Shown piece after piece: positions 13,116 through 62,252 of a stretch of DNA of 64,000 nucleotides. Below the pieces are notes generated by a model. That model was not told the origin of the DNA and did no database searches. It saw only the letters and a list, made by a program, of their open reading frames with translations. Where the stretch lies: sequence record OZ035795.1; one strand, written 5' to 3'. This DNA comes from Krischvirus LF73P4. The position numbers and the translations under genes were made by a program. Position 1 is the first letter of the stretch. Every line of letters starts with the position of its first letter.

Positions 13116-13138
13116 GCGGGGCTAGTTCCCCGCCTTTT
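13116..13138 (+). terminator. rho-independent terminator after rnlA
   Basis: GCGGGG/CCCCGC stem + TTTT. Confidence 0.6.
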
Positions 13139-13154
13139 GTCGTTGGGGGGTAAT

Positions 13155-14805: not shown

Positions 14806-15008
14806 TGTTTACCGATAAACTCAAGCAATTAGGCGAAGCACTTGCTAAACGTGGTTTTAGTGTTGATATTGAACCAGCGCCAGTTATGCCGTTTAGCGAT
14901 GAACGTCGCAGTGTATATGTCATCATGAGAAATAATCATGGTGTGAATACATTCAATGTAAAACAGTATAGCGACGGATCAGTAGAATACTTTCGCGTAT
15001 ACGGTTAA
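14805..15008 (+). CDS. hypothetical protein
   Basis: 67 aa; start overlaps pseT stop. Confidence 0.4.
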   Translation: MFTDKLKQLGEALAKRGFSVDIEPAPVMPFSDERRSVYVIMRNNHGVNTFNVKQYSDGSVEYFRVYG

Positions 15009-15029
15009 TTACTATGTGAGGATTATATT

Positions 15030-15536: not shown

Positions 15537-15843
15537 ACAAGTTGATAATATCGCACTTCGTGAAGCACTAAAGAAAATGTTTTCGGTCGGTACTCACTCT
15601 TTGCAGTTTACTAAGAAAGATGGTACTGTCCGTGAGATGATCGCCACGCGAGATCCGGCACTGATGCCGTTTGAAACATACGAAAAGTGGTTAGTTCCGA
15701 ATGTTGAAAAACCGCGTAAAGAATCAGAAACATCTTTGCCAGTATATGAAATTACAGTTGAAGGTTTCCGTAGTTTTGGGCTTGATAGTCTGATTAATGT
15801 AGATGGGCTGACTCCAGCGCAGATCGTCGAAATTTATAAATAA
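15529..15843 (+). CDS. hypothetical protein
   Basis: ATG 15529 overlapping cd stop; 104 aa. Confidence 0.4.
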   Translation: MTEQVDNIALREALKKMFSVGTHSLQFTKKDGTVREMIATRDPALMPFETYEKWLVPNVEKPRKESETSLPVYEITVEGFRSFGLDSLINVDGLTPAQIVEIYK

Positions 15844-15884
15844 TTCATCATTAAACTGTATTGATTTGAAGAGGTAATAAAATT

Positions 15885-16208
15885 ATGACCGTTAAAACTC
15901 CTAAAGCACTTGGTGATTATGTAATTATCGAAGCTAAAGCAGAAAGCGCAGGGACCGAAGTAAAAAGCTCTATGGGGATCATTATTGAGCAAAAGCGCAC
16001 TATGGGTGAGATTCCGCTGGTAGGTAAGATTATTGATATTGGCGAGACGGTAGATAAAGAATTGCTGGGTAAAACTGTTTTACTGCCACATGGAAAGATG
16101 AATAAAGTTCCTCATCCAGACGTTATTAACGGCGTTAAGAAGGAAGAAGAGATCGACCTGAAATGGACTGTAACGCACAAACAGAATATTGTGGTAGTTT
16201 ACGGTTAA
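15885..16208 (+). CDS. 31: co-chaperonin gp31 (GroES-like)
   Basis: 107 aa; pattern shared with T4 gp31 (GDYVIIE, SxGIIIExKR, GEIP, VPHP). Confidence 0.75.
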   Translation: MTVKTPKALGDYVIIEAKAESAGTEVKSSMGIIIEQKRTMGEIPLVGKIIDIGETVDKELLGKTVLLPHGKMNKVPHPDVINGVKKEEEIDLKWTVTHKQNIVVVYG

Positions 16209-16219
16209 TGATTTTAAAC

Positions 16220-16248
16220 GGCGGGAAATAATCCCGCCTATATTTTGG
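16220..16248 (+). terminator. rho-independent terminator after gene 31
   Basis: GGCGGGA/TCCCGCC stem + T-rich tail. Confidence 0.55.
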
Positions 16249-16444
16249 CTATATGATTTTGTAAGTTATTGATTATTAAGGAATTTTATTATGAAAACTA
16301 TGAATGTAAACATCCACGAAATCCATACCGAAGTATTCACCGAAGAAGACCAGTTTGGTGTATGGGTAAATCCTCATTCGATTACTATCGATATTCCTAA
16401 TGACGATTATGATCCGTTCTCTCTGATTAGCGAGATTAGTTTCA

Positions 16445-16924
16445 ATGACTTCTGAAATTGATATCTATGCGGGTGGACCTTATCCATCGGGTGAATTGAG
16501 CAATTTCAATAAAAGACCATTCCGTCTATTTGGTTGCGATATTAACAGCACAGAAGGATTTTTACAGGGGCTAAGATTTAAGAACCCTCAGAGACAAAGA
16601 GAAATCTTTTTGATGCACGGTGGCAAAGCAAAAAGAACCGGAAGAACTGAAAAGATTGAGAATCACATGTTATATTTTCAGGGTCGCCCGATTCATCGAA
16701 TGAGTGAGCATTATTACAGACTGGTACATCTGGCATTTGTTACGATGGCACGGAATAACCCAGAATTTTGTAAAGCATTACTCGCTACCGGAAATAAGAA
16801 ATTGCGTCATAGCATAGGTGGAACTGATCCGTTAAAGACTATATTGACTGAATCGGAATTTTGTAGTATCCTCAATGATATTCGTGAACGTTTAACAAAA
16901 CGAGGTGAAAATGTCAATTCTTAA
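16445..16924 (+). CDS. NADAR-family (YbiA/DUF1768-like) protein
   Basis: 159 aa; ELSNF, TEGFLQGLRF, GGKAKRTGR, LLATGNKKLRHSIGG match NADAR-domain conserved positions. Confidence 0.55.
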   Translation: MTSEIDIYAGGPYPSGELSNFNKRPFRLFGCDINSTEGFLQGLRFKNPQRQREIFLMHGGKAKRTGRTEKIENHMLYFQGRPIHRMSEHYYRLVHLAFVTMARNNPEFCKALLATGNKKLRHSIGGTDPLKTILTESEFCSILNDIRERLTKRGENVNS

Positions 16925-18407
16925 TATCATTAATCAGCTTGCAGCGACCGACAAAACATCGCTGAAAGAAAAGATCCTGAAAGAATCCGCAAGCAATGAA
17001 ACTCTGAAAGAATGCTTTTATCTGGCATATTGCAAACAGGTTACGTTTGGCGTAAAGAAATACGATAAACCATCTCGCTATTCGTCTGTATTGTCTTTAT
17101 CCGGTGCATTGCAGGTCTTTAAAAATAAACTTGCCACGCGTCAAGTAACTGGTAACGCAGCATTACAGCTAGTTACCGATACTCTGACTTGCTTGTCAGA
17201 AGATGATGCTAAAGTTGCAATGATGGTCCTGAATCGTGATCTGGAATGTGGTTGTTCCGCTACTACTGCAAACAAGGTATGGAAGAAACTGATCCCCCAG
17301 CAGCCGTGCCACCTTGCATCGTCATGTTCTGATAAGACTATTGCTAATATCAAGTATCCGGCGTATGCACAACTTAAAAGCGATGGCGCTCGTGGTATGG
17401 CTGATATTGACGGGGAAACATTAGCAATCTATACCCGCTCAGGTAATACCTATCAAGGACTTGATGATTTGTTTGCGGTTTTAGAGCGTCTACGAGGCCG
17501 TGGAATTGTTCTAGATGGCGAATTGGTATATATGCCTACCCTTTCGCAAACACCAGCGCAGAACTTCGTTGAAAGCGTTTATGATGGTACTCTGTCATGG
17601 ATATTTGAAGAAGAGGAAATGCCATTAACGCCAGTAGCGGAAGCAGTGAAAGAATCCGTTGTTGCAGATCGTCAGACCGGAAATGGTATCCTCAACAAAT
17701 CACTTAAAGGAACTATTCCAAAAGAAGAAGCCCAATGTATTGTTTATACTGTCTGGGATGTTATCGACCGTGATGTGTATTACGGAAATGAGAAAGCAAC
17801 GAAGCAATATAAAGATCGATTCGAAGAACTAAAACAGATTGTTGAAGAACTTAACGATCCTCGTGTTCAGATAATCGAAAACACTGTAGTTAACAATATA
17901 GATGAAGCTCGCGAAGTATATCATCGCTATGTAAACATGGGCTTAGAAGGTATTATCCTTAAAAATTTACATGGTGTATTTGAAGATCGCCGTAGTAAAG
18001 ATCAGGTTAAATTTAAAGAAGTGATTGACTTCGACGCGGAAATTGTTGATGTATATCCGCATAGTAAAGACCCCAATAAGGTAGGCGGTTTTACTGTCCG
18101 TAGTGCGTGCGGACGAATGATGACTAACACCGGATCGGGATTGACCGACACCACAACCGAAAAAGGCGATGATGGTATTGAACGTGTGATTCCGTTTGAC
18201 CGTCGAAATGAACTTGACCGAGAAATGTTATGGGCTGACCGTCATAACCTGATTGGAAAAGTTATTGAGATGACATGCAACGGGTATATCCGCAGCAAAT
18301 CACGTAAAGAAGATGAACCGGAGTTCTCTTTATTTCTCCCAATCATCAAACGTATTCGCTACGACAAGACCACTGCAAATACAGTAAAAGAGGTATTCGA
18401 TGTGTGA
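16911..18407 (+). CDS. 30: ATP-dependent DNA ligase
   Basis: ATG 16911; adenylation motif KSDGAR (KxDG), LDGELVY, EGIILKN, C-terminal FLPIxxRxRxDKTxANT as in T4 gp30. Confidence 0.9.
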   Translation: MSILNIINQLAATDKTSLKEKILKESASNETLKECFYLAYCKQVTFGVKKYDKPSRYSSVLSLSGALQVFKNKLATRQVTGNAALQLVTDTLTCLSEDDAKVAMMVLNRDLECGCSATTANKVWKKLIPQQPCHLASSCSDKTIANIKYPAYAQLKSDGARGMADIDGETLAIYTRSGNTYQGLDDLFAVLERLRGRGIVLDGELVYMPTLSQTPAQNFVESVYDGTLSWIFEEEEMPLTPVAEAVKESVVADRQTGNGILNKSLKGTIPKEEAQCIVYTVWDVIDRDVYYGNEKATKQYKDRFEELKQIVEELNDPRVQIIENTVVNNIDEAREVYHRYVNMGLEGIILKNLHGVFEDRRSKDQVKFKEVIDFDAEIVDVYPHSKDPNKVGGFTVRSACGRMMTNTGSGLTDTTTEKGDDGIERVIPFDRRNELDREMLWADRHNLIGKVIEMTCNGYIRSKSRKEDEPEFSLFLPIIKRIRYDKTTANTVKEVFDV

Positions 18408-18873
18408 TAATGAAGGGGCGAAAGCCCCTAAACCTAAAAAATTGTCAAAGAAAGAGCAACGCCAGATCCTGAAAATGAAATATGGTGGACGTTGTGCCTA
18501 TTGTGGCGAGGAACTAGGGGATCGCTGGCACGCAGACCACATCAAACCAGTATTGCGACGCTCAAAGGTAGTCTATGATGAAAATGGACGAATTGCCCGT
18601 AATGATGATGGATCGTGGAAGTATAAGGTTGTAGGAATGCATAAACCGGAACATGATATACTTGATAACATGAATCCGGCGTGTGTGCAATGCAATCTTT
18701 ATAAAAGCTGTATGGGCTTAGAATACTGGCGTAAGTGTATACGCGAGAACTTCCAGAAGTACATTCAGCGCAATATGGGATTGCGAGCGGCTAAACGCTT
18801 TGGCTTGCTGTCAATTCATGACCAGCCAGTAGAATTTTATTTCGAAAAGTACGAGCGCGAAAATAAGGAGTAA
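18400..18873 (+). CDS. HNH endonuclease
   Basis: 157 aa; CAYCGE...HADHIKP...CVQCN (HNH core with zinc-binding cysteines); start overlaps ligase stop. Confidence 0.7.
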   Translation: MCDNEGAKAPKPKKLSKKEQRQILKMKYGGRCAYCGEELGDRWHADHIKPVLRRSKVVYDENGRIARNDDGSWKYKVVGMHKPEHDILDNMNPACVQCNLYKSCMGLEYWRKCIRENFQKYIQRNMGLRAAKRFGLLSIHDQPVEFYFEKYERENKE

Positions 18874-18880
18874 CCATTAT

Positions 18881-19225
18881 ATGTTCTTTCTGTTTATCTA
18901 TATCCTTTTTGTTTTCCTGGTAGGCATGTACGCAAGCCGTTTAAACCGTAGCGTTATCGGTTATGTTATCCTATCATTGATCATTAGCCCGTTGATCACC
19001 TTTATCATTTTGTTGGTGTTGGGTCCAACGAAATCATATGAACAGGAACAAGCAGACAAGCTAAAAGCCGAGATGGTAGAGAAACAATTTGTTCAACTGT
19101 ATCTAGAAAACCCAGATTTTGAGGAAGTTTCCACCCTTAAGCGAATGTATGACGATCTAACACGATACCCTAACTATCGAAATGTGCTGGCTATGGAAGA
19201 AGCCATTAAGCTCATGAAAAAATAA
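18881..19225 (+). CDS. hypothetical membrane protein
   Basis: 114 aa; two N-terminal hydrophobic helices. Confidence 0.45.
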   Translation: MFFLFIYILFVFLVGMYASRLNRSVIGYVILSLIISPLITFIILLVLGPTKSYEQEQADKLKAEMVEKQFVQLYLENPDFEEVSTLKRMYDDLTRYPNYRNVLAMEEAIKLMKK

Positions 19226-19238
19226 TTCAAAAAAGTTG

Positions 19239-19267
19239 TTGACAGGGGATCACGTATCCCCTATACT
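19239..19267 (+). promoter_or_regulatory. PeSL-type promoter (hairpin GGGGATCACGTATCCCC in spacer)
   Basis: TTGACA 19239-19244, 17-nt hairpin spacer, TATACT 19262-19267, conserved leader + AAGGAGAATCAAAATG. Confidence 0.65.
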
Positions 19268-19309
19268 ACACACATCAAAACGAAACACACTTTCTTAAGG
19301 AGAATCAAA

Positions 19310-19588
19310 ATGAGCAACCTGTCTTTCGCTAAAGTAGAAATTTCTAAAACTCGCGGTGGCTTTAAAATCAAAACTTCCAATATCACTTCCTGCCGTGGTT
19401 GCGTCCGGTTTGCGTTCGACTTGGCAGCGAAGCTGGGTATTAAAACCTTTACCGTTGAGAGCGGATCTAACTGGACCACTCTGATTGTTACTGCCGCTTG
19501 GATTAATGGCGAGTATGTGGAAAAAGCATACTTTGACATTTTCTATGACTATGAAGAAAAATGCTTTTATGCACTGCAAGACATGTAA
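19310..19588 (+). CDS. hypothetical protein
   Basis: 92 aa behind PeSL promoter. Confidence 0.5.
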   Translation: MSNLSFAKVEISKTRGGFKIKTSNITSCRGCVRFAFDLAAKLGIKTFTVESGSNWTTLIVTAAWINGEYVEKAYFDIFYDYEEKCFYALQDM

Positions 19589-19598
19589 GGAGGATAAC

Positions 19599-19907
19599 GT
19601 GACAACACAAGATATTGTTAATGTGCTTTATATCTGGACTACTGGTGCAATGATCTCGTATCTAGTATTCTGCTTGTACGCCAGATTCGACAAGGACACC
19701 AAAGAGGTCGATACAGGAGCATTTTGTATTGCTGCAATCGTATGGCCTATAACGTGGACCGTGGTTGATATTGTTATGTGTTATAAAGGATTGAAATGTT
19801 TTGGTTTGATGATTGCTGGTAAACCGGAAGCGAAGCCGCGCAAGCATAAAGGATTTACTCCAAAACAAGAAGACGACGGTCGATATAAACCGGAAGAAGA
19901 TTTTTAA
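19599..19907 (+). CDS. hypothetical membrane protein
   Basis: GTG start after AAGGAGG; two TM segments; C-terminal basic tail. Confidence 0.4.
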   Translation: MTTQDIVNVLYIWTTGAMISYLVFCLYARFDKDTKEVDTGAFCIAAIVWPITWTVVDIVMCYKGLKCFGLMIAGKPEAKPRKHKGFTPKQEDDGRYKPEEDF

Positions 19908-19912
19908 AACAG

Positions 19913-19941
19913 TTGACATGAAAATGCGGTTATCCTATAAT
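19913..19941 (+). promoter_or_regulatory. PeSL-type promoter (hairpin GCGGTTATCCTATAATAACCGC spanning -10)
   Basis: TTGACA 19913-19918, TATAAT 19936-19941 inside hairpin. Confidence 0.65.
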
Positions 19942-19975
19942 AACCGCATCAAATGAACGATGTGAGGATTATATT

Positions 19976-20284
19976 ATGTTTATCTCTTCTGCTACTCCAG
20001 TTAAAGTTTACGGCGAAACTGTGTATCTTCCGGCTGGCTATCGCTATGTTATCGTTGACCGTCACGGTGTAGTGTATGCTTTTAAAGGCCGTCCGGTTGA
20101 GATTGATTCTGAATATGGCACATGGGGATATAAAGCCGCATACATGGATATTCCTGATTTGGGAGTACGTTTAGGAAGATTTGATAATGATGTTAAACCA
20201 TGCTTGATTAAGTATGCATCCTATGGTAAAACTGTTAAACCAAATAGCGTCGGCTGGATTGATGACGGCGTTAACGTGAAATAA
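19976..20284 (+). CDS. hypothetical protein
   Basis: 102 aa; GAGGATTATATTATG initiation module. Confidence 0.5.
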   Translation: MFISSATPVKVYGETVYLPAGYRYVIVDRHGVVYAFKGRPVEIDSEYGTWGYKAAYMDIPDLGVRLGRFDNDVKPCLIKYASYGKTVKPNSVGWIDDGVNVK

Positions 20285-20298
20285 TGTGAGGTGAATTT

Positions 20299-20592
20299 AT
20301 GCTGTCTACTCGTAAAATGGTTGTTGGTGTCGCTGAAAATGCTTTAGAAATCGCTGATGAGGCTTTGACCGTCGCTTATGTTCGACGTGAAGAATTGCTA
20401 TTGAAACACGCGGATCTATTGGTTGAACGGAAAGAGACTATGAAAGCTGGTAAAAGCACGCTCGCGATTGCCATTAAACTATCTGATAGTGAAGATGAGA
20501 TCGTGGAGATCCACACTAAGATCAAGGAAGTAGAAAAATACTCTGAAATGCTGCGACATAATCTTGATGAATTAGGGGTAAATCATGGCTAA
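20299..20592 (+). CDS. hypothetical protein
   Basis: 97 aa; GTGAGGTGAATTTATG ribosome-binding site. Confidence 0.5.
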   Translation: MLSTRKMVVGVAENALEIADEALTVAYVRREELLLKHADLLVERKETMKAGKSTLAIAIKLSDSEDEIVEIHTKIKEVEKYSEMLRHNLDELGVNHG

Positions 20593-20806
20593 GTTACGAT
20601 CTGGACGAGTTTTAACGCTGGCTGAACTGAAAGAAAAAGGTTTAGACCCTGATTCTGTAGGTATTAGACCTATTAATTACATTCTGTTTCTAGAGGGTAA
20701 ACTCTTTACTAATGCTCATCCAGCATTAAATGCACCACATTTTTATAAGTGTAATGACTTTAACGGTTATATCGTTCCAGAATATTTCTTAGAATTTGAT
20801 GATTAG
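20585..20806 (+). CDS. hypothetical protein
   Basis: 73 aa; start overlaps upstream stop. Confidence 0.4.
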   Translation: MAKLRSGRVLTLAELKEKGLDPDSVGIRPINYILFLEGKLFTNAHPALNAPHFYKCNDFNGYIVPEYFLEFDD

Positions 20807-21092
20807 TATAAAACACTCACCGACCGGAAAGGGGTCGGTGATCTTCAATGACGATAAACCGTTAATCTTGATTCGTAATGGTGACTGGACATTGCATGAT
20901 ACCCGTGTTACTATCCATTCACCGCCTAAAGAGATTCAACGGGAATTGGTTAGGATCGCCCTAACCGATAAGCATAAAGAGGCGGTAGGCTATTCTCTTC
21001 TGAAATTAGGTGTTGACTTTCCTTTCGAGTATACGCTAACATTCAGAGAGCAGTCAGTGAAGCTAACAGAGATTCTATTCTCTGAGATATGA
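20796..21092 (+). CDS. hypothetical protein
   Basis: 98 aa; overlaps upstream ORF end. Confidence 0.4.
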   Translation: MMISIKHSPTGKGSVIFNDDKPLILIRNGDWTLHDTRVTIHSPPKEIQRELVRIALTDKHKEAVGYSLLKLGVDFPFEYTLTFREQSVKLTEILFSEI

Positions 21093-34942: not shown

Positions 34943-35230
34943 ATGACTTACGATGAACAGCATGACCAGATTGCAGTGAATGAAGTAGACAAAGTACAAG
35001 CAGAACTAGAGGCTAAAGCCGCTAAGAAAGCGGAAAAGATCTTGCGTAAGAACTCGCGAGAGATTGCACGCCTTAAGCGGTGGGCGGAACAAGCTATCAT
35101 CGATGATAATCGTGATGCGTATATCTACGCTATCGGAAAGTTACGTGATATCTACAAACAGCCACACACGCCAGAACTGCTTTCTGCTATGTGGATTAGT
35201 ACACGGCAAACGGTATTAAGTATGCTGTAA
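34943..35230 (+). CDS. hypothetical protein
   Basis: 95 aa; charged/helical. Confidence 0.45.
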   Translation: MTYDEQHDQIAVNEVDKVQAELEAKAAKKAEKILRKNSREIARLKRWAEQAIIDDNRDAYIYAIGKLRDIYKQPHTPELLSAMWISTRQTVLSML

Positions 35231-35320: not shown

Positions 35321-36346
35321 ATGAAAATTTTGCTTTTAGGTGATCTGCATACTGGTATCGGTGGCGATGATCCGTGGGTGCATGAGTATATTCTTGATAC
35401 CATCAAGAAAGCGGTTGAATACTCCAAAGAGCATAATATTAAGACATGGATTCAAACAGGGGATTGGTTTGATTGCCGAAAAGCAATTACCCATGAAACC
35501 ATGAAATTTAACCGTACTAAGGTCATCCCGTTACTGGAAGAGGCTGATATTACTTGTTATATCACGGTCGGGAATCATGATATGTTTAAACGAAACAAGA
35601 TCCAGCCTAACGCACCGCGCGAAGTGTTAAGCCAGTATGATTGCATTAAGGTTATCGATAAACCGGAAACAGTTACCTTTGATGGTGTATCATTTGATCT
35701 GTTCCCGTGGTTTTGTGATGACAATAAATCAGAGGTTTTAGAGTTTATTCAAAACTCATTCAGCGAATATTGTGTAGGCCATTGGGAATTGTCCGGTTAC
35801 TATTTCTATAAAGGGCTAAAATCCGAAGGTTATAGCTCGGACTTCCTCAAGAAATACCGTGAAGTGTTTTCGGGTCACTTTCATACTATCAGTGATGGCG
35901 GTAACGTAACGTATATTGGTACACCATACACACTAACGGCGGGTGACGAAAACGATCCGCGTGGTTTTTGGGTATTCGATACCGATACACACAAAAAAGA
36001 GTTTATTCAGAATGACAAAACTTATCATGTGCGTATCACTTACCCGTCAGATGATAAAATCGATGTAGAACGCTTTAAAGGGCTTAGTGTGCGTCTTATC
36101 GCAACGGTCGCTGATAATGGATTAACTAAGTTAGAAAGCGCGTTAGAGGCCGTTGTACACAAGCTAAAAGTGGTCCATAAACTGGAGAGTAGCGCATCAC
36201 AGGAAACAGGTGTTATTGAAGTTAAAAGCACTATTCAGATGGTCTATGAATATCTGGAAGAACAAAACCTAGAACCGGAAGAACTTGCGGCGGTCAAGCG
36301 TATTTCTGATGAACTTTTAGCCGAAGTAAATAACGCAAAAAGTTAG
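35321..36346 (+). CDS. 47: recombination nuclease subunit gp47 (Mre11-like)
   Basis: 341 aa; calcineurin-like phosphoesterase motifs LGDLH, GDWFD, GNHD, GHxH. Confidence 0.85.
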   Translation: MKILLLGDLHTGIGGDDPWVHEYILDTIKKAVEYSKEHNIKTWIQTGDWFDCRKAITHETMKFNRTKVIPLLEEADITCYITVGNHDMFKRNKIQPNAPREVLSQYDCIKVIDKPETVTFDGVSFDLFPWFCDDNKSEVLEFIQNSFSEYCVGHWELSGYYFYKGLKSEGYSSDFLKKYREVFSGHFHTISDGGNVTYIGTPYTLTAGDENDPRGFWVFDTDTHKKEFIQNDKTYHVRITYPSDDKIDVERFKGLSVRLIATVADNGLTKLESALEAVVHKLKVVHKLESSASQETGVIEVKSTIQMVYEYLEEQNLEPEELAAVKRISDELLAEVNNAKS

Positions 36347-55724: not shown

Positions 55725-56393
55725 ATGCTTCCAGTGGATTTAATGATTGACTTTGAAAGTTTAGGTTATCCGCCCGATGGGGCGGTTATCAATATGGCGG
55801 CAATCGGATTTAAAGAAGATCCGCACAATCCACCTACATTTAAAGAACTGGTCGACAATTCCTTTCTGGTAAAATTTGATATTCCTTCCCAGAAAGGTGT
55901 AAGGGTGTTTGATCATGGTGTGGTTGAATGGTGGAAGAATACCGCCTCAGAAGGTATGAGAAAGCAATTAATCACAAATGGTACGGAAGTATCAACTAAA
56001 GAAGGTTTAGCGCGTTTTAACGCATTCTGTGAAGCCGTAGGGGTAGATCCGGTTAAATCCGTAATGTGGTCACGCGGTAATGCGTTTGATATTCCGTTAC
56101 TAGTTGATATGATCCGCCGTGCACACAATACACGAGAGACGTTCAGCCTTGAACCTGTGCGATTCTGGAATATCCGAGATGTTCGCACCGCCATTGAGCG
56201 TACATTGATGCATCGCGGGATGTGTGAGTGTCCGTTACCAATGGGTACGCTAGATGGTTTTATCGCACATGATGCAATTCATGATTGCGCTCGCGATATT
56301 CTTATGCTAATCTATGCACAACGTTATGCTATGGGTCTGGAAGACCTACCAGAAAATCCAGATCCAAATTCAGTTAAGAAACAAAGGGGATAA
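55725..56393 (+). CDS. dexA: exonuclease A (DEDD family)
   Basis: ATG 55725; collinear with T4 DexA (IDFExxG, SQKGxRxF, EWWKN, FDxPxLVDxIR, LEPxxFWNxRDxRT, GTLDGFxAHDxIHDCAxDIxML, YAMGLED). Confidence 0.85.
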   Translation: MLPVDLMIDFESLGYPPDGAVINMAAIGFKEDPHNPPTFKELVDNSFLVKFDIPSQKGVRVFDHGVVEWWKNTASEGMRKQLITNGTEVSTKEGLARFNAFCEAVGVDPVKSVMWSRGNAFDIPLLVDMIRRAHNTRETFSLEPVRFWNIRDVRTAIERTLMHRGMCECPLPMGTLDGFIAHDAIHDCARDILMLIYAQRYAMGLEDLPENPDPNSVKKQRG

Positions 56394-56394
56394 T

Positions 56395-56568
56395 ATGCCA
56401 TTATACGATTATTCTTGTGAAGAACACGGTCAATTTCAGAAAATCCGCAAAATTTCCGAGCGTGAAAAGGCAGAATGCCCTGAATGCGGTAAAGAATGCA
56501 AACAGGGATTGACTGCCCCGCGCGGGATTAATGGCGGGTACTATGATAAAAATGTGCGCGTGTCATGA
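56395..56568 (+). CDS. small zinc-ribbon protein (FmdB-like CxxC...CxxC)
   Basis: 57 aa; YDYSCEEHG...CPECG. Confidence 0.4.
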   Translation: MPLYDYSCEEHGQFQKIRKISEREKAECPECGKECKQGLTAPRGINGGYYDKNVRVS

Positions 56569-56666
56569 GTCATATACTTGACAATCACTCAATTTTAATA
56601 TGATTGTTGCAGCCGTCTTTGTGGCGGTTGCAGTAAGTTATGGTTATGTTATGAAGAGGTTTAATA

Positions 56667-58490
56667 ATGAGTGAGTTTCGCATTTTATCTGATCGTGAGC
56701 ATGTCCTTAAGCGTGCAGGAATGTATATAGGATCAACAACTTACGAAGAACATCAACGTTTCCTGTTCGGTAAATGGACAAAAATTTCATATGTTCCTGG
56801 ACTGGTGAAAATCATTGATGAGATCATCGACAACTCTGTAGACGAGGCGATTCGCACTAATTTTGAATTTGCCAATGTGATTAGCGTCGATATCCAAAAC
56901 AATATTGTTACGGTAACAGACAACGGTCGCGGTATTCCTCAACATATGGTTACTACCCCAGAGGGCACGCAGATTCCGCAACCTGTAGCCGCATGGACAC
57001 GAACAAAAGCAGGGTCTAACTTTGATGATACCAATCGATTAACGCAAGGGATGAACGGTGTAGGGTCGTCGTTGTCAAATTTCTTTAGCGATTGGTTTAC
57101 TGGTGTGACCTGTGACGGCGAAACAGAAATGACCGTTCAATGTACAAACGGTGCTGAAAATATCACATGGTCATCGAAACCATCAAAATTGAAGGGAACA
57201 AAGGTTACATTTTGCCCAGACTTCGACCACTTCGAAGGTTATATGATGGACAACTCTGTTTTAGATATTGTTCATGATCGTCTGCAATCATTGAGCGTAA
57301 TATTTCCTAAGATCACGTTTAAGTTTAATGGTAAACGTATTGTTAGTAAGTTCAAGGATTATGCTAAACTATACAATGATGATCCGTTTGTCATTGAAGA
57401 TAAAAACTTTTCACTTGCCCTAGTTCCTGCGGTCGAGGGAGAAGGTTTTAAATCAGTATCCTTTGCTAATGGTCTGTTTACCAAAAACGGGGGAACACAC
57501 GTAGACTACGTGACAGATGATCTTTGTGAAGAGATTGTAAAACGAATCAAGAAAGAATATAAGGTTGATGTTACTAAAGCTGCGGTTAAATCTGGATTGA
57601 CCTGTATTCTTATTGTTCGTGAATTGCCTAACCTTCGTTTTGATTCACAGACAAAAGAACGATTGACTAATCCAACTGGTGATATCAAGCGTCATATTGA
57701 TCTTGATTTTAAAAAGCTGGCTAAAGTCATTGCGAAGAAAGAAAACATTATCATGCCTATTATTGCTGTAGTCCTGGCACGCAAAGAGGCAGCAGATAAA
57801 GCGGCAGCGACTAAGGCAGCAAAGGCAGCGAAACGGGCTAAGGTAGCAAAACACGTTAAAGCTAACCTTATTGGAACTGACGCAGAAACTACCCTGTTTT
57901 TGACGGAAGGTGATTCCGCGATCAACTATCTGATCTCTGTACGTGATCAAGATTTACATGGCGGTTTCCCGTTGCGAGGCAAAACTCTTACAACGTGGGA
58001 ACAACCGGAGGCAAAGATCGTTAAGAACGCCGAAATTTTTAACATCATGGCGATCACTGGCTTGCAATTTGGTGTTGATGCATTGGAAGTTATGCAATAC
58101 AAAAATATTGCGATTATGACAGACGCTGATACTGACGGGATCGGGTCTATTAAACCTAGTCTGATCTCTTTCTTTGCTCGTTGGCCTGAATTGTTCGAAG
58201 ATGGACGAATCCGGTTTATCAAAACACCTATTATCATTGCGGAACCAAAGAAAGGTGATGATGTTCGATGGTATTATGACCTAGAAGATTTTGAGAACGA
58301 CCGAGATAATATCAAAGGTTACAACATTCGATATATCAAAGGTTTAGCATCGCTCACAGAATCAGACTATCATCGCGTGATCAACGATCCTGTCATGGAG
58401 ATCATCACGTTACCGGAAAACTATAAAGAGCTATTCGATTTGCTCTATAGTGAAGATTCAGACATGAGGAAGGCATGGATGGCGTCATAA
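56667..58490 (+). CDS. 39: topoisomerase II ATPase subunit, gp39 fused to gp60-like C-terminal region
   Basis: 607 aa; GHKL ATPase motifs (DNGRGIP, GxNGVGSS), collinear with T4 gp39, C-terminal Toprim-like TDADTDG region corresponding to the separate T4 gene 60. Confidence 0.85.
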   Translation: MSEFRILSDREHVLKRAGMYIGSTTYEEHQRFLFGKWTKISYVPGLVKIIDEIIDNSVDEAIRTNFEFANVISVDIQNNIVTVTDNGRGIPQHMVTTPEGTQIPQPVAAWTRTKAGSNFDDTNRLTQGMNGVGSSLSNFFSDWFTGVTCDGETEMTVQCTNGAENITWSSKPSKLKGTKVTFCPDFDHFEGYMMDNSVLDIVHDRLQSLSVIFPKITFKFNGKRIVSKFKDYAKLYNDDPFVIEDKNFSLALVPAVEGEGFKSVSFANGLFTKNGGTHVDYVTDDLCEEIVKRIKKEYKVDVTKAAVKSGLTCILIVRELPNLRFDSQTKERLTNPTGDIKRHIDLDFKKLAKVIAKKENIIMPIIAVVLARKEAADKAAATKAAKAAKRAKVAKHVKANLIGTDAETTLFLTEGDSAINYLISVRDQDLHGGFPLRGKTLTTWEQPEAKIVKNAEIFNIMAITGLQFGVDALEVMQYKNIAIMTDADTDGIGSIKPSLISFFARWPELFEDGRIRFIKTPIIIAEPKKGDDVRWYYDLEDFENDRDNIKGYNIRYIKGLASLTESDYHRVINDPVMEIITLPENYKELFDLLYSEDSDMRKAWMAS

Positions 58491-58491
58491 T

Positions 58492-59055
58492 ATGAAAAGT
58501 GCGAAATTTTGGAATACTGAAATTCAAGAGGAATTAAAACGAAGATTTGGACACACGGAAGGTGTTCTATATCACAAAACAAATAGTCCGTCTTTTAATG
58601 GTCTGCCAGAGGGATATTTCTACCAAGTCGGTGATAAAGTAAAAACAAAAAAGTTAAATTACGGTCATTTGGCAATAGATGTTTACAATAAGGTTAAAAA
58701 GAGAACATCTACATATCTTGTACATAGAATTGTCTGGTTTCTTGAATATGGAACACAGGTTAAGGTAATAGACCACATAGACGGGAATCCAGAAAACAAC
58801 AATCCACCAAATTTACGGGAGGCAACACAACAACAAAACATGTACAATAAAAAGAAAATGGACGGGTGCACGAGCATATATAATGGTGTTACTCATCGCA
58901 AAGGATCTAGCAAAAGACCGTGGCAAGCACAAATAAGGATAAACGGATACAGAAAATACATAGGATCGTTTGCTACTCAGGAGGAAGCCGCTAGAGCATA
59001 TGATGAATATGCAAAAATTCATCATGGGGAGTTTGCATCTTTAAATTTTAGTTGA
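58492..59055 (+). CDS. HNH homing-endonuclease-like protein with AP2 DNA-binding domain
   Basis: 187 aa; HRIVW...IDHIDGNPENNNPPNLR (HNH_3-type) then YNGVTHRK...WQAQIRINGYRKYIGSFATQEEAARAYDE (AP2-like); AT-rich, AGA/AGG/ATA-rich codon usage unlike neighbours. Confidence 0.7.
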   Translation: MKSAKFWNTEIQEELKRRFGHTEGVLYHKTNSPSFNGLPEGYFYQVGDKVKTKKLNYGHLAIDVYNKVKKRTSTYLVHRIVWFLEYGTQVKVIDHIDGNPENNNPPNLREATQQQNMYNKKKMDGCTSIYNGVTHRKGSSKRPWQAQIRINGYRKYIGSFATQEEAARAYDEYAKIHHGEFASLNFS

Positions 59056-59079
59056 CACACAAGGGAGATTCTCTATAAT
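59052..59079 (+). promoter_or_regulatory. PeSL-type promoter (hairpin GGGAGA...TCTCCC spanning -10, then U-run)
   Basis: TTGACA 59052-59057, TATAAT 59074-59079 inside palindrome, TTTTCTTTT downstream. Confidence 0.6.
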
Positions 59080-59113
59080 GGGAGTCTCCCTTTTCTTTTA
59101 TGAGGATTTAACG

Positions 59114-59413
59114 ATGAGCAAAAAGAATAACATGATGATGAGTATGGCAAAGTTCATGGAAGCAGACCTGATCAAAAATACAGTACAGCATGAACGCCAG
59201 CGAGAAGCCGCAGTGATTGCAGAACAAGGTTTTCAGGTTATCCGCAATCCACCTAAAGATACGATTAAATCGAAATACAGAGACGATCTGAAAGACCATG
59301 AAGTACGGGAACTGGTTAATGATCTGCGTGACATTGCCATCAAATATCATGGTTATCAGTGCTTACGAGAACTGATCGCAGAGCGAGTAATGGATGCCCT
59401 GAAAAAAGATTAA
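59114..59413 (+). CDS. hypothetical protein
   Basis: 99 aa from ATG after GAGGATTTAACG. Confidence 0.45.
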   Translation: MSKKNNMMMSMAKFMEADLIKNTVQHERQREAAVIAEQGFQVIRNPPKDTIKSKYRDDLKDHEVRELVNDLRDIAIKYHGYQCLRELIAERVMDALKKD

Positions 59414-59420
59414 AAATCTG

Positions 59421-59449
59421 TTGACGCTGGATCGGGGATATATCATAAT
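59421..59449 (+). promoter_or_regulatory. PeSL-type promoter (hairpin GGGGATATATCATAATGTCCCC spanning -10)
   Basis: TTGACG 59421-59426, 17-nt spacer, CATAAT 59444-59449, conserved leader CATCGAAAAC. Confidence 0.6.
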
Positions 59450-59479
59450 GTCCCCATCGAAAACAAAAGGTTGACTTAT

Positions 59480-59674
59480 ATGAAACCGTTTAAGAATGAA
59501 GAAACTCAAAAATTTTGTGAAAAAATTGCAGAAATCTACTTGACAGGGGAAAAGGAAAAAGCTAATATTATGTTCAAAGAGTCGGTTTCTATGATGAAAG
59601 TAGCACGCTGGGAACTGATCGCAATGCAAGACCAAATTCGTTATCTAGTAACAAAGGAGAATCAAAATGCGTAA
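59480..59674 (+). CDS. hypothetical protein
   Basis: 64 aa. Confidence 0.4.
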   Translation: MKPFKNEETQKFCEKIAEIYLTGEKEKANIMFKESVSMMKVARWELIAMQDQIRYLVTKENQNA

Positions 59675-59861
59675 CCATTACATCGAACTGGCAAGCCGTA
59701 AAGTTTCAGACCTGAAAGGCGTAATTGCTTACTATGAAGAAGTCCTGAAAAACGAAATTGCGGAGTGGGAACGTAAAGAATACAGCAAGTGCTTAGAGAA
59801 AAGCCGCGCTGAACTGGTTGACGCAGAAGCCCATCTGCAATGGGTGATTGAAAATGTATAA
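59667..59861 (+). CDS. hypothetical protein
   Basis: 64 aa; AAGGAGAATCAAAATG start. Confidence 0.45.
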   Translation: MRNHYIELASRKVSDLKGVIAYYEEVLKNEIAEWERKEYSKCLEKSRAELVDAEAHLQWVIENV

Positions 59862-59871
59862 GGAGTAGAAA

Positions 59872-60129
59872 ATGAGTCGAAGTTTTGATTTTCTGATCGC
59901 CAAGTGTCATCGAGAAAAGAAATCGATGGACCTGTTTATGAAATGTTTGAGGTATGAATATGCACACCTTCGTAAACACAAAATTGATCCGCAAGTTTCC
60001 TACGAAAACATCAAGAAATATGCGAAAGAAGTGATTGACAACGATTGCACCGTGACATATAATGCGTTTATTGATTTATGGGCGTGGGATGTAATCTACG
60101 CAGAGATGGACAAAGAAGATTTTAATTAA
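59872..60129 (+). CDS. hypothetical protein
   Basis: 85 aa; AAGGAG ribosome-binding site. Confidence 0.45.
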   Translation: MSRSFDFLIAKCHREKKSMDLFMKCLRYEYAHLRKHKIDPQVSYENIKKYAKEVIDNDCTVTYNAFIDLWAWDVIYAEMDKEDFN

Positions 60130-60143
60130 GTGAGGATTATATT

Positions 60144-62252
60144 ATGAAAATGCATATCGATAATGAAGAAGTATTTGGCAGTGACCTGAGCGGTGCGGTT
60201 GATTTTTCACTGAAAGCAAGTAGCAAGGCTTTTATGGTGCTTTCTAAGAACACTTATCAATATTGTGAGCGTGCTTGCGTCCGTGAGTATTCGTGCAATG
60301 CTACCGACACTCACAAAGAAGCCGGAACCTTAGATCGTCCGTTTGATATTCATTTACCGACTGCAATCGAACCGTATTTTTCTGTGCGTGATTATGGTAC
60401 GGGTATTCCGTCTAAGAAAGAATTAGAACAACTGTTTACGGTTTACTTTGAATCAACAAAAGACCAGACTAATGATTATATCGGATCTTTTGGTTTAGGT
60501 GCGAAGTCTGCTTATAGCTATACTGACACCTTTACAATCGTAAACTACTACAATGGTCGCGCTTATGGCTTTACTGCATTTGTGCAAAACTCTATGCCGA
60601 AAATGGTGCAGATTTTCGACGAACCGACCTATGAAGACAACGGTCTGAAAATCACTATTCCGGTGAAAGAAAAAGACATTCAGACATGGCATCGAGAAGC
60701 ACAATTTGTACTTCGTCATTTTGGGGAACACAAACCTAATATCAATGCAATCGAAATTAATTATTTCCCTAGCTTTGATAATTATTATGTTTGCAATGGG
60801 CGTGATAACGATTCCTATGTAGTATATGCAATCATGGGTAAGATCCAGTATCCGATCCCGTATGAATATGTTCGCGGAACATGGTTAGAAGCTGTAAACC
60901 GCCAGCACCAGACCATTTACATTAATTTTGATTTGGGTGATCTGGACCTGATGCCATCGCGCGAAGAAGTTCACTTGTCAATCGAGACTAAAGCGAACAT
61001 CGAAAAACGTATTGCAGAAATCAATGAAATGATGTTGGAAAAGGTTAAAGAAAAGATCGCCAACATTAAAACAGAGCGTAAACTTGCGCAATTTATGAGC
61101 GAGTATTCATCGACTCAACGCAATATTATTAGCAAGATGGGTAAGATCGGGCAGTGGGATGATCCGGTAGCAATCTATAATAAGTTTGTGAATGCGGGTA
61201 AAGATTCGCCTAGTGACGTAGAAGGTCAGGTGTATACTCTGTATCGTACTCGTCACACAATCAGTAAATTGCGCCCTGCTTTCGTTAGCAGTCAATACAA
61301 CATTACGCATTTTGTATGGATGCATAAAGAAGATATTCTGTGTGTAATTGATGATACCGATAAACCGAAACTGCGTGCACTGACTCTTAACGGCATGGTC
61401 CAGGAATACGGAATCAATAAAAAGGTACTGGTGTTCCGTCAGCGCAACGAAAAACATATGGAGACTTTCGAGTACATCAAACAGTATTATGATGAATCTG
61501 AAATGACCGTGATTAAGGTATCAGAGGCCGATGATCTGCGTGCTAAAGCAGTTAAACCGGAAAAGACCGAGCGTACACAACGTGAAGCGACTCCCAAGCT
61601 GCCTAACGTGTATATCATGGAAAAGATTGGTGACAGTTGGCATAAAACCAGCCATCACATGAAAGCGGCAGAGATTCGCGAGTTATCAGGCTTGCACATG
61701 TTCCGCGTAGGTGATGCATTCGAAAGCCGTAGTCGTAAATCGATCTATAGTGAAAATACATTACACACGGCGCTTGACTACTTCGGGGTAACAAAGTATA
61801 TTATTACTCGAAACGAGACACAAAAATATCTCGTTGACGAACAATTGGAATGTGCGCTAGAATTTGTTCGCGGTAAGCTGGCTGGTCTGGCTAAGAAGGT
61901 TAAGACCAATCATCTGGGGTATGGCGAATATCTGGGTGTGATCACTATGTTGTTTCATGACGATGAACTAGAACGCTGTGTTCCAGAATTTATTGACAGA
62001 CTGTACGGTCGTCATTATAATAAAGAGGTTTCCAAGTTACTCCTTCGTACTCGTTGGATTATGGACGAAGAAACTAAAAAGATCTGTGATGAAAAATTCA
62101 CGGCAGCAAACGAACGAATTAAAGCAGTTTGTGCGAAGTTTAAAGAGAATAGCCCGTTACTGTATGATATTGTAGATAACTGGTATCGTATTCTGCATAA
62201 CGACAAACGCGCACAAGACTTTATGAAACTGGTTAAGAATGTTAAATTTTAA
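60144..62252 (+). CDS. rIIA: rIIA-like membrane-associated protein (GHKL ATPase-like domain)
   Basis: 702 aa; DYGTGIP...GSFGLGAKS ATPase-like motifs; size and position immediately upstream of rIIB as in T4. Confidence 0.7.
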   Translation: MKMHIDNEEVFGSDLSGAVDFSLKASSKAFMVLSKNTYQYCERACVREYSCNATDTHKEAGTLDRPFDIHLPTAIEPYFSVRDYGTGIPSKKELEQLFTVYFESTKDQTNDYIGSFGLGAKSAYSYTDTFTIVNYYNGRAYGFTAFVQNSMPKMVQIFDEPTYEDNGLKITIPVKEKDIQTWHREAQFVLRHFGEHKPNINAIEINYFPSFDNYYVCNGRDNDSYVVYAIMGKIQYPIPYEYVRGTWLEAVNRQHQTIYINFDLGDLDLMPSREEVHLSIETKANIEKRIAEINEMMLEKVKEKIANIKTERKLAQFMSEYSSTQRNIISKMGKIGQWDDPVAIYNKFVNAGKDSPSDVEGQVYTLYRTRHTISKLRPAFVSSQYNITHFVWMHKEDILCVIDDTDKPKLRALTLNGMVQEYGINKKVLVFRQRNEKHMETFEYIKQYYDESEMTVIKVSEADDLRAKAVKPEKTERTQREATPKLPNVYIMEKIGDSWHKTSHHMKAAEIRELSGLHMFRVGDAFESRSRKSIYSENTLHTALDYFGVTKYIITRNETQKYLVDEQLECALEFVRGKLAGLAKKVKTNHLGYGEYLGVITMLFHDDELERCVPEFIDRLYGRHYNKEVSKLLLRTRWIMDEETKKICDEKFTAANERIKAVCAKFKENSPLLYDIVDNWYRILHNDKRAQDFMKLVKNVKF

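Follow-up and report, generated by a model that had tools for sequence, protein, structure and literature searches.

Within the window, by which we mean the whole stretch of 64,000 nucleotides of Krischvirus LF73P4 (OZ035795.1) that was analysed, the gene for the large subunit of DNA topoisomerase II is directly followed by a gene for a predicted HNH-AP2 endonuclease. The region is 98-99% identical to Krischvirus genomes. Both open reading frames (ORFs) described in the earlier note are present exactly at 56667-58490 and 58492-59055. The features of the locus are as follows:

56667..58490, + strand: gene 39, DNA topoisomerase II large (ATPase + Toprim) subunit, 607 aa (PHROG 543, Pfam, T4 alignment)
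58086..58094, + strand: equivalent of the T4 39/60 split, the mobA insertion point in T4 (BLASTP boundaries aa 474/476)
58119..58139, + strand: TDADTDG, Toprim acidic motif, aa 485-491, gp60-equivalent part
58458..58490, + strand: recoded last 11 codons of gene 39, left end of the inserted unit (identical in 12/12 carriers of the endonuclease gene)
58488..58494, + strand: stop-start junction TAA-T-ATG (no Shine-Dalgarno sequence at 6-9 nt upstream)
58492..59055, + strand: predicted free-standing HNH-AP2 homing endonuclease gene, 187 aa (Pfam, PHROG, phmmer, AlphaFold, Foldseek)
58492..58719, + strand: N-terminal region, aa 1-76, beta-rich (aligns with the N-terminal DNA-binding part of I-HmuI)
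58768..58848, + strand: HNH (beta-beta-alpha-metal) nuclease motif, aa 93-119 (D94, H95, N103, N107, N116, N119)
58870..59049, + strand: AP2/ERF-type DNA-binding domain, aa 127-186 (phmmer to AP2 structures, Foldseek; sub-threshold in Pfam)
59052..59092, + strand: host composite promoter/terminator, PeSL-like, right border of the insert (sequence scan; same with or without the gene)

The 607-aa product of gene 39 matches PHROG 543 ('DNA topoisomerase II large subunit') at 1e-252. Pfam scores for DNA_gyraseB (5e-17) and HATPase_c (6e-9) are above threshold, and those for TOPRIM_C and Toprim are slightly under their cut-offs. In BLASTP comparisons, aa 4-475 of T4 gp39 align with aa 2-474 of the window protein (57% identity) and aa 31-159 of T4 gp60 with aa 476-606 (53% identity). 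The GHKL ATPase, transducer and Toprim regions of a type IIA topoisomerase are located in a single chain, in the order T4 gp39 then gp60, and the gene is continuous across the T4 39/60 split point. Given these alignment limits, the position of TDADTDG at aa 485 places the Toprim DxD motif within the gp60-equivalent part. The earlier note had described a 'fused' 39/60 subunit. A single ORF spanning both T4 genes was indeed found, but the wording is misleading, since an unsplit gene is normal and the split in T4 is derived, via insertion of mobA (PMC2988022). The annotation of RB49 agrees, as it lists the large subunit as the equivalent of T4 gp39 plus gp60 and the split as a T4 exception. As a warning for annotation, 'fused 39/60' denotes the default, and the exception is T4.

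Domains and composition of the endonuclease

The 187-aa protein matches PHROG 99 ('HNH endonuclease') at 2.4e-48 and, over aa 75-118, the Pfam family HNH_3 (PF13392) at 6.3e-14, with 51.8 bits compared to a cut-off of 24.8. The motif IDHIDGNPENNNPPNLR corresponds to aa 93-109. The N-terminal DNA-binding region and the HNH motif of I-HmuI (PDB 1u3e), a nicking HNH enzyme of Bacillus phage SPO1, align with the window protein at an E-value of 4.8e-5. This alignment starts at aa 46 of the endonuclease and sets its residues D94-H95, N107 and N116 opposite D74-H75, N87 and N96 of I-HmuI. In this type of motif, Asp-His acts as the general base and the Asn residues bind metal or have a structural role; for I-HmuI, these roles are reported by Shen et al. 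(2004). Among 36 homologues, D94, H95, N103, N107, R109 and N119 are invariant. On alignment, the Asp-His and Asn residues of the HNH motif are all in place, including the catalytic His/Asn named in the earlier note.

For the C-terminal domain, the Pfam family AP2 (PF00847) stays under its gathering score in the window protein (25.2 bits vs. 33.3, E 2.1e-5); it passes the cut-off in most homologues and reaches 45.8 bits in the paralogue of L014. In a precomputed annotation, the AP2 match was graded 'faint'. A phmmer search yielded matches to five AP2/ERF structures with E-values of 9e-6 to 3e-4. The AlphaFold (AF2) model of the endonuclease has a pLDDT of 93.4 and predicts three strands (133-135, 144-150 and 153-160) and a helix (163-181) for the AP2 domain. 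With Foldseek, this domain superimposes on AtERF1 (1gcc) with an rmsd of 1.6 Å over 61 columns, a TM(target) of 0.78 and 41% identity, and the modelled domain compares to 7et5 with an rmsd of 1.4 Å. The three-stranded sheet plus helix is common to the plant AP2/ERF domains of AtERF1, TEM1 (7et5) and WRI1 (7wq5), for which rmsd values of 1.4-1.6 Å over about 61 residues and identities of 36-43% were obtained. The plant domains serve transcription, whereas the domain in the window is fused to a nuclease, presumably for target recognition.

Comparison of the whole model with 1u3e (Foldseek E 7.8e-4, probability 1.00, 159 columns) results in a global TM-score of just 0.40, because the domain arrangement differs. 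I-HmuI is intron-encoded and carries a C-terminal helix-turn-helix, whereas the window endonuclease is free-standing and carries a C-terminal AP2 domain. Judged from sequence and model, the 187-aa ORF is an intact HNH_3 plus AP2 endonuclease; this identity, already proposed in the earlier note, is borne out by HNH_3 above its cut-off and by phmmer and Foldseek for AP2. The enzyme is probably a nickase. We know of no HNH-AP2 enzyme that has been characterised in phages. A tblastn search for paralogues in the window with the 187-aa protein returned the query gene alone.

The GC content of the endonuclease ORF is 0.360 compared to 0.406 for the window, which is the second lowest value of 84 ORFs (z = -2.0). 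The codons AGA, AGG and ATA together account for 7.5% of its codons, which is rank 1/84 (mean of window ORFs 1.5%). Seven of its ten Arg codons are AGR, compared to 107/950 elsewhere (Fisher p = 2.5e-5), and seven of its ten Ile codons are ATA, compared to 93/1300 elsewhere (p = 1.2e-6). The rare codon AGG is also used within the recoded end of gene 39. The description of the gene as AT-rich and rich in AGA/AGG/ATA stands in these respects, but the overall codon-usage likelihood is no outlier (z = -0.9, rank 11/84), and the core genes gp59 and gp30.3 as well as several small ORFs are also rich in these codons. Rare-codon richness was rejected as a marker of further mobile genes in the window because gp59 and gp30.3 are among the other high scorers.

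Borders, expression signals and distribution of the inserted unit

Compared to RB49, the end of gene 39 in the carriers contains 13 substitutions within 27 nt, and the C-terminal peptide reads DSDMRKAWMAS* instead of DADQRKIWMQS*. This recoded patch is present in 12/12 carriers and in 0/50 records without the endonuclease gene (sample of 58 phage records and 4 assembly contigs). Based on these sequence comparisons, the insert exceeds the ORF, extends from about 58458 to 59051 and comprises the recoded gene 39 end plus the endonuclease ORF. The view of an acquired free-standing gene is thus upheld with regard to mobility, but the unit is not the ORF alone and begins at 58458, inside gene 39. 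Exact-pattern searches of IMG/VR for the recoded patch and for the start of the ORF, and of JGI metagenomes for the patch followed by the stop codon, yielded 0 matches each.

The right end of the unit is at 59051, after which the host sequence restarts at a host promoter, beginning with its -35 hexamer; the TGA stop codon of the endonuclease falls within this hexamer. The motif consists of TTGACA, a 16-nt spacer and TATAAT (12/12 matches), with an overlapping 13-bp hairpin and then a T-run, and resembles the promoter/stem-loop (PeSL) elements described previously (PMC2839356). It is identical in phages carrying and not carrying the endonuclease gene, and the annotation of GEC-3S lists it as a promoter and a terminator. 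All 50 empty sites have one exact junction, TAACAC|TTGACA, and their gene 39 ends fall into four allele types. These non-carrier alleles keep the residues D..RK.WM, and T4 gp60 terminates with ...DLRKEWMSQ. Among non-carriers, the 33-nt patch has a pi of 0.25 vs. 0.04, values that are biased as the phages were picked for low junction identity.

All neighbouring genes have GAGG or GGAG at 6-9 nt upstream of the start. For the endonuclease gene, the sequence AGGAAGG is located about 17 nt upstream of the ATG, and the lack of a Shine-Dalgarno sequence at 6-9 nt therefore points to translational coupling or re-initiation. An RNA structure around the stop-start junction that brings AGGAAGG near the AUG or sequesters it was rejected, the minimum free energy of -13.1 kcal/mol (z = 0.29) being like that of shuffled sequences. 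No sigma-70-like promoter above 9/12 was found between 58200 and the start of the ORF, and the late-promoter core TATAAATA is absent within 56000-60500. Searches of the whole window for group I introns, other RNA families and tRNAs yielded none. The seg and mob genes of T4 are promoter-less cassettes with a poor translation-initiation region (PMC2988022), and the predicted expression signals of the endonuclease cassette match this pattern.

Among 58 Krischvirus records, the endonuclease gene is present in eight (JSE twice, W115, FL15, G5211, G37-3, kvi and pEJ01), always at this one site, and the other 50 have an intact empty site. The presence/absence polymorphism expected in related phages was thereby found. 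Carrier and non-carrier records are otherwise collinear, and the borders of the insert are identical. The carrier kvi and the non-carrier kaaroe, for example, stem from one Danish wastewater study and share 98-99% identity, with flanking SNPs at 58292-58451 and 59058-59264. In 12 carriers, 10/597 nt of the cassette are segregating sites compared to 73/915 nt of the adjacent flanks (Fisher p = 2.4e-8), which is a polymorphism about 5 times below that of the flanks. The flanks of these carriers represent different haplotypes, 2-3% apart, while the diversity of the patch is zero, and the endonuclease ORF is intact in 12/12. The low diversity of the cassette relative to its flanks fits a recent horizontal spread. 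Recent mobile acquisition, as claimed in the earlier note, is in line with the presence of the gene in 8/58 records, the deviant codons and GC content and the lower polymorphism. Closest homologues were rejected as a guide to the donor lineage, as the best non-orthologous matches share 46-51% identity and are located at other sites in T4-like contigs.

The protein of JSE (EpJSE_00005) is 100% identical to the window endonuclease. W115_65, G5211_00006, kvi_146 and the CDSs of FL15, pEJ01 and G37-3 occupy the same locus, with 98.4-100% protein identity across the JSE-type copies. In these copies, the borders and the recoded end of gene 39 are identical to the window, and nothing of substance differs. 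They are annotated variously as 'hypothetical protein', 'HNH endonuclease' or 'homing endonuclease', with an HNH or homing endonuclease given for W115, FL15 and G5211. Members of the HNH-AP2 class are on record for RB49, RB43, RB16 and JSE (Nolan 2006, PMC1524935; Petrov 2010, PMC2993671, Table 5), and the class goes back to Magnani 2004, as cited in PMC1524935 and PMC2993671. These members have the same two domains, measure about 180-190 aa and stand free next to conserved genes of replication or recombination. The nearest HNH-AP2 paralogues share just 42-49% identity with the window endonuclease and are inserted at gene 47/46, gp2 or dsbA, whereas the window gene follows the 3' end of gene 39.

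The window element is thus not new, since the same protein is known from JSE and the class from published RB49-type phages. With the JSE genome, the identical gene entered GenBank, and the class has been in the literature since 2004-2010. As class and locus are already in public records, the finding is real but ordinary: another case of a free-standing homing endonuclease gene among T4-type phages is of little import alone. Its modest value lies in being a clean comparative example of a mobile unit that includes a recoded piece of the adjoining essential gene and exploits the stop/promoter context of the host while leaving this context undisturbed.

Proposed homing and alternative readings

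We consider it likely, based on sequence and structural modelling, that the gene encodes a promoter-less, translationally coupled, I-HmuI-like free-standing homing endonuclease as the last cistron of the gene 39 transcription unit. With the stop codon of the topoisomerase gene on one side and the promoter/terminator motif downstream, it would be transcribed by read-through from gene 39 and translated at a low level through termination-reinitiation at UAA-U-AUG. The enzyme would act as an I-HmuI-like monomer and recognise a long asymmetric site via its N-terminal beta domain and the AP2 domain. In co-infecting phages without the endonuclease gene, the predicted target is the 3' end of gene 39 or a site close to it, and the DNA of these phages would be nicked or cut. 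Recombination-dependent repair would then copy the cassette together with the recoded flank from the carrier genome. Carriers would escape attack, their target site being abolished by the insertion, by the recoded 27-33 nt or by both; the perfect linkage of the recoded gene 39 end with the gene supports such resistance indirectly. Enzymatic activity, the type of cut (nick or double-strand break), the exact target, the basis of carrier immunity and the way the gene is expressed are inferred. A counterpoint to homing is that about 14% of the sequenced relatives are carriers, while an efficient homing element might perhaps be expected to be commoner.

Two systems of T4 are similar in concept. The MobA/gene 60 cassette (Bonocora et al. 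2011; Manning and Atkins 2022 bioRxiv) likewise ties an HNH gene to the large subunit of topoisomerase II, carries a divergent copy of the neighbouring topoisomerase sequence and is promoter-less with a poor translation-initiation region. However, MobA sits inside the gene, splits 39/60 and needs a 50-nt translational bypass, whereas the window insert is placed after the stop codon and involves no bypass. Membership in the T4 Mob (MobA) lineage was rejected, as tblastn against T4 1-6500 gave nothing better than E 2.5 and gene 39 is continuous. By sequence and analogy, the window element thus appears to work like MobA, outside the MobA lineage. SegF/SegG of T4 are an example of intronless homing, in which a free-standing gene between conserved genes is transferred with flank co-conversion and the carrier is protected by sequence differences (PMC2988022). 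Intronless homing with flank co-conversion is also the proposed likeness to the window gene, but Seg enzymes belong to the GIY-YIG type and introduce double-strand breaks, whereas the window enzyme belongs to the HNH type and is probably a nickase.

An extension of this model, which we put forward tentatively from the sequence comparisons and regard as somewhat doubtful, is that the recoded 27-33 nt at the end of gene 39 are what confers immunity in cassette carriers. The other four alleles of this patch, those of phages without the gene, could then be resistance alleles or scars of hit-and-run events. In T4, flank polymorphisms alone did not block nicking by MobA, and the 50-nt bypass insert was required (Bonocora 2011, as summarised in bioRxiv 10.1101/2022.08.31.505936); therefore, the recoded patch need not be the immunity determinant. 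If the extension is true, the Krischvirus topoisomerase gene is a natural, sequence-resolved arms race, in which at least three unrelated endonuclease lineages attack both ends of one essential gene and T4 mobA attacks its interior.

It is improbable that the cassette was moved by PeSL-mediated modular shuffling or ordinary homologous recombination instead of being driven by the endonuclease, with the HNH-AP2 protein having another role such as competitor exclusion, regulation through the AP2 domain or DNA processing. In its favour, a PeSL-type composite promoter/terminator forms the right border, ORFs are inserted and deleted through PeSLs in RB49 and phi1 (PMC2839356), and the window itself holds a join of distant genome regions located at a PeSL (19229-19311), which may be a real recombination product or an assembly chimera. 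The left border, however, lies inside the coding sequence of gene 39 and not at a PeSL, and the architecture of the protein is complete by the standard of known homing enzymes. Its paralogues occupy varied sites beside conserved genes (gene 47, gp2, dsbA and gene 46), like homing endonuclease genes. Marker exclusion, moreover, shares its mechanism with intronless homing (PMC2988022).

Slightly less probable still is an endonuclease gene that is ancestral to Krischvirus and was repeatedly lost, such that the polymorphism reflects deletion and the present copies may be relics, decaying or inactive. G37-3 keeps a recoded 5' end of gene 39 after losing an ORF of the Endonuclease_7 family, and 'hit and run' was reported for MobA (bioRxiv 10.1101/2022.08.31.505936). 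Against repeated loss, the 50 empty sites share the junction TAACAC|TTGACA despite four alleles of the gene 39 end, and no non-carrier has the cassette-type patch. The roughly fivefold lower diversity of the cassette is the opposite of that of an old vertical gene, and intact ORFs in all 12 carriers with conserved catalytic residues speak against decay.

A last reading, in which low expression and weak selection account for the deviant codons and the AT-richness and the patch is linked standing variation at a poorly constrained C-terminus, would accommodate the frequent AGA/AGG/ATA in gp59, gp30.3 and several small ORFs, the four non-carrier alleles sharing D..RK.WM and the similar end of T4 gp60 (...DLRKEWMSQ), but we judge it very improbable in view of rank 1/84 for these codons (p ~1e-5 to 1e-6), the perfect linkage of patch and gene (12/12 vs. 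0/50) and a patch diversity of zero in carriers with flanks 2-3% apart. It touches the origin of the gene only and is compatible with the homing model.

The pattern seen at the 3' end of gene 39 recurs nearby, which counts in favour of homing. Relatives harbour other cassettes at the 5' end of gene 39, namely an ORF of the Endonuclease_7 family or a second HNH-AP2 ORF, each with its own recoded start. In G37-3, the recoded 5' end occurs without the Endonuclease_7-family ORF that is present beside it in G5211 and L015. The recoded starts brought by the 5' cassettes, and the one in G37-3 without an endonuclease gene, are a parallel to the proposed immunity patch. Endonuclease cassettes of relatives thus bracket the same topoisomerase gene. 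The five 3'-end and three 5'-end alleles constitute a natural allele series for studying target recognition and immunity of HNH-AP2 enzymes. When 43 kb of the window are compared to RB49, the sole other large indel is RB49ORF040c next to gene 47, which also features a presence/absence polymorphism and a cluster of divergence in the adjoining gene 47.

Genomic setting and gene identities

Krischvirus is the genus of RB49-like T4-type coliphages, and its genomes kvi, pEJ01, W115, JSE and RB49 match 56000-60200 at 98-99% identity. The genes in this region run dda, dexA, 39.2, gene 39, the endonuclease ORF, four small ORFs and rIIA, and the local order around gene 39 is that of RB49. Window and RB49 are collinear over 43 kb with only two large indels, the endonuclease insert and RB49ORF040c, which is found in RB49 and absent from the window.

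56667-58490, +: topoisomerase II large subunit, gene 39, 607 aa (Pfam, PHROG, T4 alignment)
58492-59055, +: HNH-AP2 endonuclease ORF, 187 aa (Pfam HNH_3 and AP2, I-HmuI alignment, AlphaFold model)
59052-59092: sigma-70 promoter/terminator composite (perfect TTGACA, 16 nt, TATAAT) overlapping a 13-bp hairpin and T-run

The gene 39 product matches PHROG 543 (1e-252) and, above threshold, the Pfam families DNA_gyraseB and HATPase_c, with Toprim and TOPRIM_C just under it. Residues 2-474 align with T4 gp39 (aa 4-475, 57% identity) and residues 476-606 with T4 gp60 (aa 31-159, 53% identity); TDADTDG at aa 485 lies within the gp60-equivalent part. These alignments bear out the earlier note in placing both subunits in a single ORF, but its word 'fused' is better replaced by 'unsplit'. 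Ordinarily the gene is unsplit: the RB49 annotation equates it with T4 gp60 and gp39, which it calls 'disrupted by an insertion', the phi1 record names the gene '60+39' and the split in T4 has been put down to insertion of mobA (PMC2988022). At ~56596, a T-run 5' of the small ORF before gene 39 is one base shorter (CTCAA-TTTT) than in nine relatives with the same arrangement (CTCAATTTTT); since it lies upstream of the ATG, no frameshift results.

In the endonuclease ORF, the HNH_3 match is far over the Pfam cut-off and the AP2 match under it. When aligned with I-HmuI, a nicking homing endonuclease, residues D94-H95, N107 and N116 stand opposite D74-H75, N87 and N96 of that enzyme, and D94, H95, N103, N107, R109 and N119 are invariant among 36 homologues. 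The AlphaFold model built from the alignment of these homologues has a pLDDT of 93.4. In this model the C-terminal domain fits plant AP2/ERF domains with an rmsd of 1.4-1.6 Å, and I-HmuI was among the matches when the whole model was used in a structure search. Taken together, these results confirm the HNH-AP2 reading at the level of sequence and predicted fold, with the catalytic Asp-His and Asn residues present.

Composition, distribution and borders of the insert

The description of the ORF as AT-rich and rich in AGA, AGG and ATA codons holds. Its GC content (36.0% compared to 40.6% for the window) is the second lowest among 84 ORFs and its AGA+AGG+ATA share (7.5% compared to a mean of 1.5%) the highest. 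Arginine is encoded by AGR in 7/10 cases compared to 107/950 elsewhere (p = 2.5e-5), and isoleucine by ATA in 7/10 compared to 93/1300 elsewhere (p = 1.2e-6). By overall synonymous-codon likelihood, however, the ORF is no outlier (z = -0.9). High shares of the three codons also occur at 169-849, 13475-13927, 16445-16924 and 4521-4838, which comprise the core genes for gp59 and gp30.3, a DUF4326 ORF and a small ORF with weak Pfam matches only. Since core genes are among them, rare-codon richness alone is no marker of mobile genes here. The highest GC content of the window (47.4%) belongs to the ORF at 7210-7983 (257 aa), for which a Pfam search gave no match and whose codon-usage fit is the second-poorest among the 84 ORFs (log-likelihood -1.31).

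Among the 58 phage records matching the region, eight carry the endonuclease ORF (two of JSE, and W115, FL15, G5211, G37-3, kvi and pEJ01), at the same site each time and with 98.4-100% protein identity, while 50/58 have an uninterrupted empty site; the presence/absence polymorphism named in the earlier note thus exists. The exact 187-aa protein was found in the same context in many public assemblies (129 index blocks).

The inserted unit is larger than the ORF, a correction to the earlier note: the alignment of carriers with non-carriers starts to diverge within gene 39, at 58458. The last 11 codons of gene 39 and its stop read GAT TCA GAC ATG AGG AAG GCA TGG ATG GCG TCA TAA in all carriers and GAT GCA GAT CAG CGC AAA ATT TGG ATG CAA TCA TAA in RB49. 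This recoded patch contains 13 substitutions in 27 nt. As a result, 4 amino acids differ and 3 further codons are changed synonymously, including CGC to the rare AGG. A single base separates the gene 39 stop from the endonuclease start (TAA-T-ATG). On the right, host sequence restarts at 59052 with TTGACA, the -35 element of the promoter, whose TGA also terminates the endonuclease ORF (AGT TGA). In total, 594 nt stand in place of 36 nt of RB49. The composite at 59052-59092, whose terminator-like hairpin has the -10 hexamer in its loop, is identical in carriers and non-carriers and kept in all relatives. It is annotated as promoter/terminator in the GEC-3S record and corresponds to the promoter/stem-loop (PeSL) motifs reported for RB49 and phi1 (PMC2839356). 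The insert thus disturbs neither the reading frame of the topoisomerase gene nor the promoter that follows.

Signs of mobility and a proposed mechanism

Twelve carriers (eight genomes including the window, and four assembly contigs) were compared over patch plus ORF and over 557 nt upstream and 358 nt downstream of this cassette. Segregating sites number 10/597 nt in the cassette, none of them in the patch, and 73/915 nt in the flanks (Fisher p = 2.4e-8); nucleotide diversity is 0.006 compared to 0.022-0.027. The flanks represent different haplotypes, and the ORF is intact in 12/12 carriers. Patch type and gene presence are in perfect linkage: no cassette-type patch was found among non-carriers when every identity class able to contain one was inspected. 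In ten non-carriers, the 33 nt up to the stop codon are the most variable part of a 905-nt alignment, with a pi of 0.25 (mean 0.04) that is biased because these phages were picked for low identity around the junction; four allele types occur there, all retaining D..RK.WM. Presence in 8/58 records, low cassette diversity and codon bias support the view that the gene is a recently acquired free-standing homing endonuclease.

Close upstream of the ORF there is no promoter-like site scoring more than 9 of 12, and no late-promoter core was found near it. GAGG/GGAG at 6-9 nt is present for all neighbours and absent here; the closest candidate ribosome-binding sequence, AGGAAGG, lies within the patch, ~17 nt from the ATG, and no significant RNA structure was detected at the start region. 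Expression is likeliest to occur by read-through transcription from gene 39 and low-level coupled translation, as reported for the promoter-less seg/mob cassettes of T4 (PMC2988022). Such a transcript would end at the hairpin 59061-59092.

On the model of I-HmuI and of T4 MobA and MobE, which despite nicking a single strand are inherited at high frequency (PMC2988022, PMC3017599), the enzyme is predicted to nick the DNA of phages without the gene. Its target would be a long asymmetric site at the gene 39 3' end or close to it, or at the PeSL junction. Recombinational repair would then copy in the cassette, and carriers would be protected by the insertion, the recoded patch or both. For the patch as immunity determinant the odds are only about even, because flank polymorphisms alone gave no protection from MobA in the account of Bonocora 2011 summarised in a preprint (bioRxiv 10.1101/2022.08.31.505936).

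Related endonuclease genes and further features

Public genomes already contain the element, with annotation, and its class is known, so it is nothing new. JSE EpJSE_00005 encodes the identical protein, two HNH-AP2 homing endonuclease genes are listed for JSE by Petrov et al. (PMC2993671, Table 5) and tblastn with the window protein found two places in that genome. The AP2-HNH class in RB49 and RB43 was described by Nolan et al. (PMC1524935). The gene shows no similarity to the T4 mobA region; it shares with MobA the host gene and presumably the mode of working, but belongs to a different lineage. The literature search yielded no paper on this cassette, its recoded flank or the gene 39 5'-end cassettes. 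The earlier note is, with the two corrections, confirmed in its observation and supported in its interpretation, and the remaining value is that of a neat natural system in which to study target recognition by HNH-AP2 enzymes and the immunity that goes with it.

Relatives carry endonuclease genes just 5' of gene 39.

L004 (phage G5211) 1173-1901; contigs L015 and L016 441-1169: Endonuclease_7-family ORF, 242 aa
Contig L014 619-1158: second HNH-AP2 ORF, 179 aa

The Endonuclease_7-family ORF is accompanied by recoding of the first ~150 nt of gene 39. G37-3 has a recoded start of this type without the ORF, which suggests loss or a 'hit and run' event. The L014 ORF is 47% identical to the window endonuclease over the nuclease-AP2 part, and gene 39 starts with a different recoding there. 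The recoded starts span the first 120-150 nt; the window counterpart, 56573-56830, contains none of these cassettes or recoded starts. The paralogue RB49ORF040c (HNH-AP2, 42.5% identity) adjoins gene 47 as a 565-nt insert, its empty site lying at window ~35320 between the ORF 34943-35230 and gene 47 (35321-36346). It occupies the original ribosome-binding site and start of gene 47 and provides a new ribosome-binding site. Between RB49 and the window there are ~18 differences clustered in the first ~140 nt of gene 47, whereas the upstream side is almost identical. The cases at both gene 39 ends and at gene 47 show that endonuclease genes recur in these phages as a unit with a divergent copy of the conserved sequence beside them.

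A 157-aa ORF (18400-18873) adjoining the DNA ligase gene is a second HNH-type ORF of the window. By position and length it is the counterpart of RB49ORF212c, which Nolan et al. (PMC1524935) give as an 'HNH endonuclease'. The identical protein encoded on contig L029 has a faint precomputed PF01844 match; no similarity to the HNH-AP2 gene was detected.

At 19229-19311, stretches that RB49 has ~80 kb apart are brought together in the window: its first 19.3 kb (1-19.3 kb, gene 59 to ligase) match RB49 from ~123.2 kb upward, and 19.2-62.3 kb match RB49 from 43.05 kb down to 1. Any listed Krischvirus record covers at most 86% of 9000-21000 in one place, so none of them has this join. The crossover lies within a PeSL repeat of ~80 nt (TTGACA-GGGGATcacgtATCCCC-TATACT), and the join reflects either recombination at PeSL motifs or a chimeric assembly. 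The sole independent contig with the left-hand ORF stops at the repeat.
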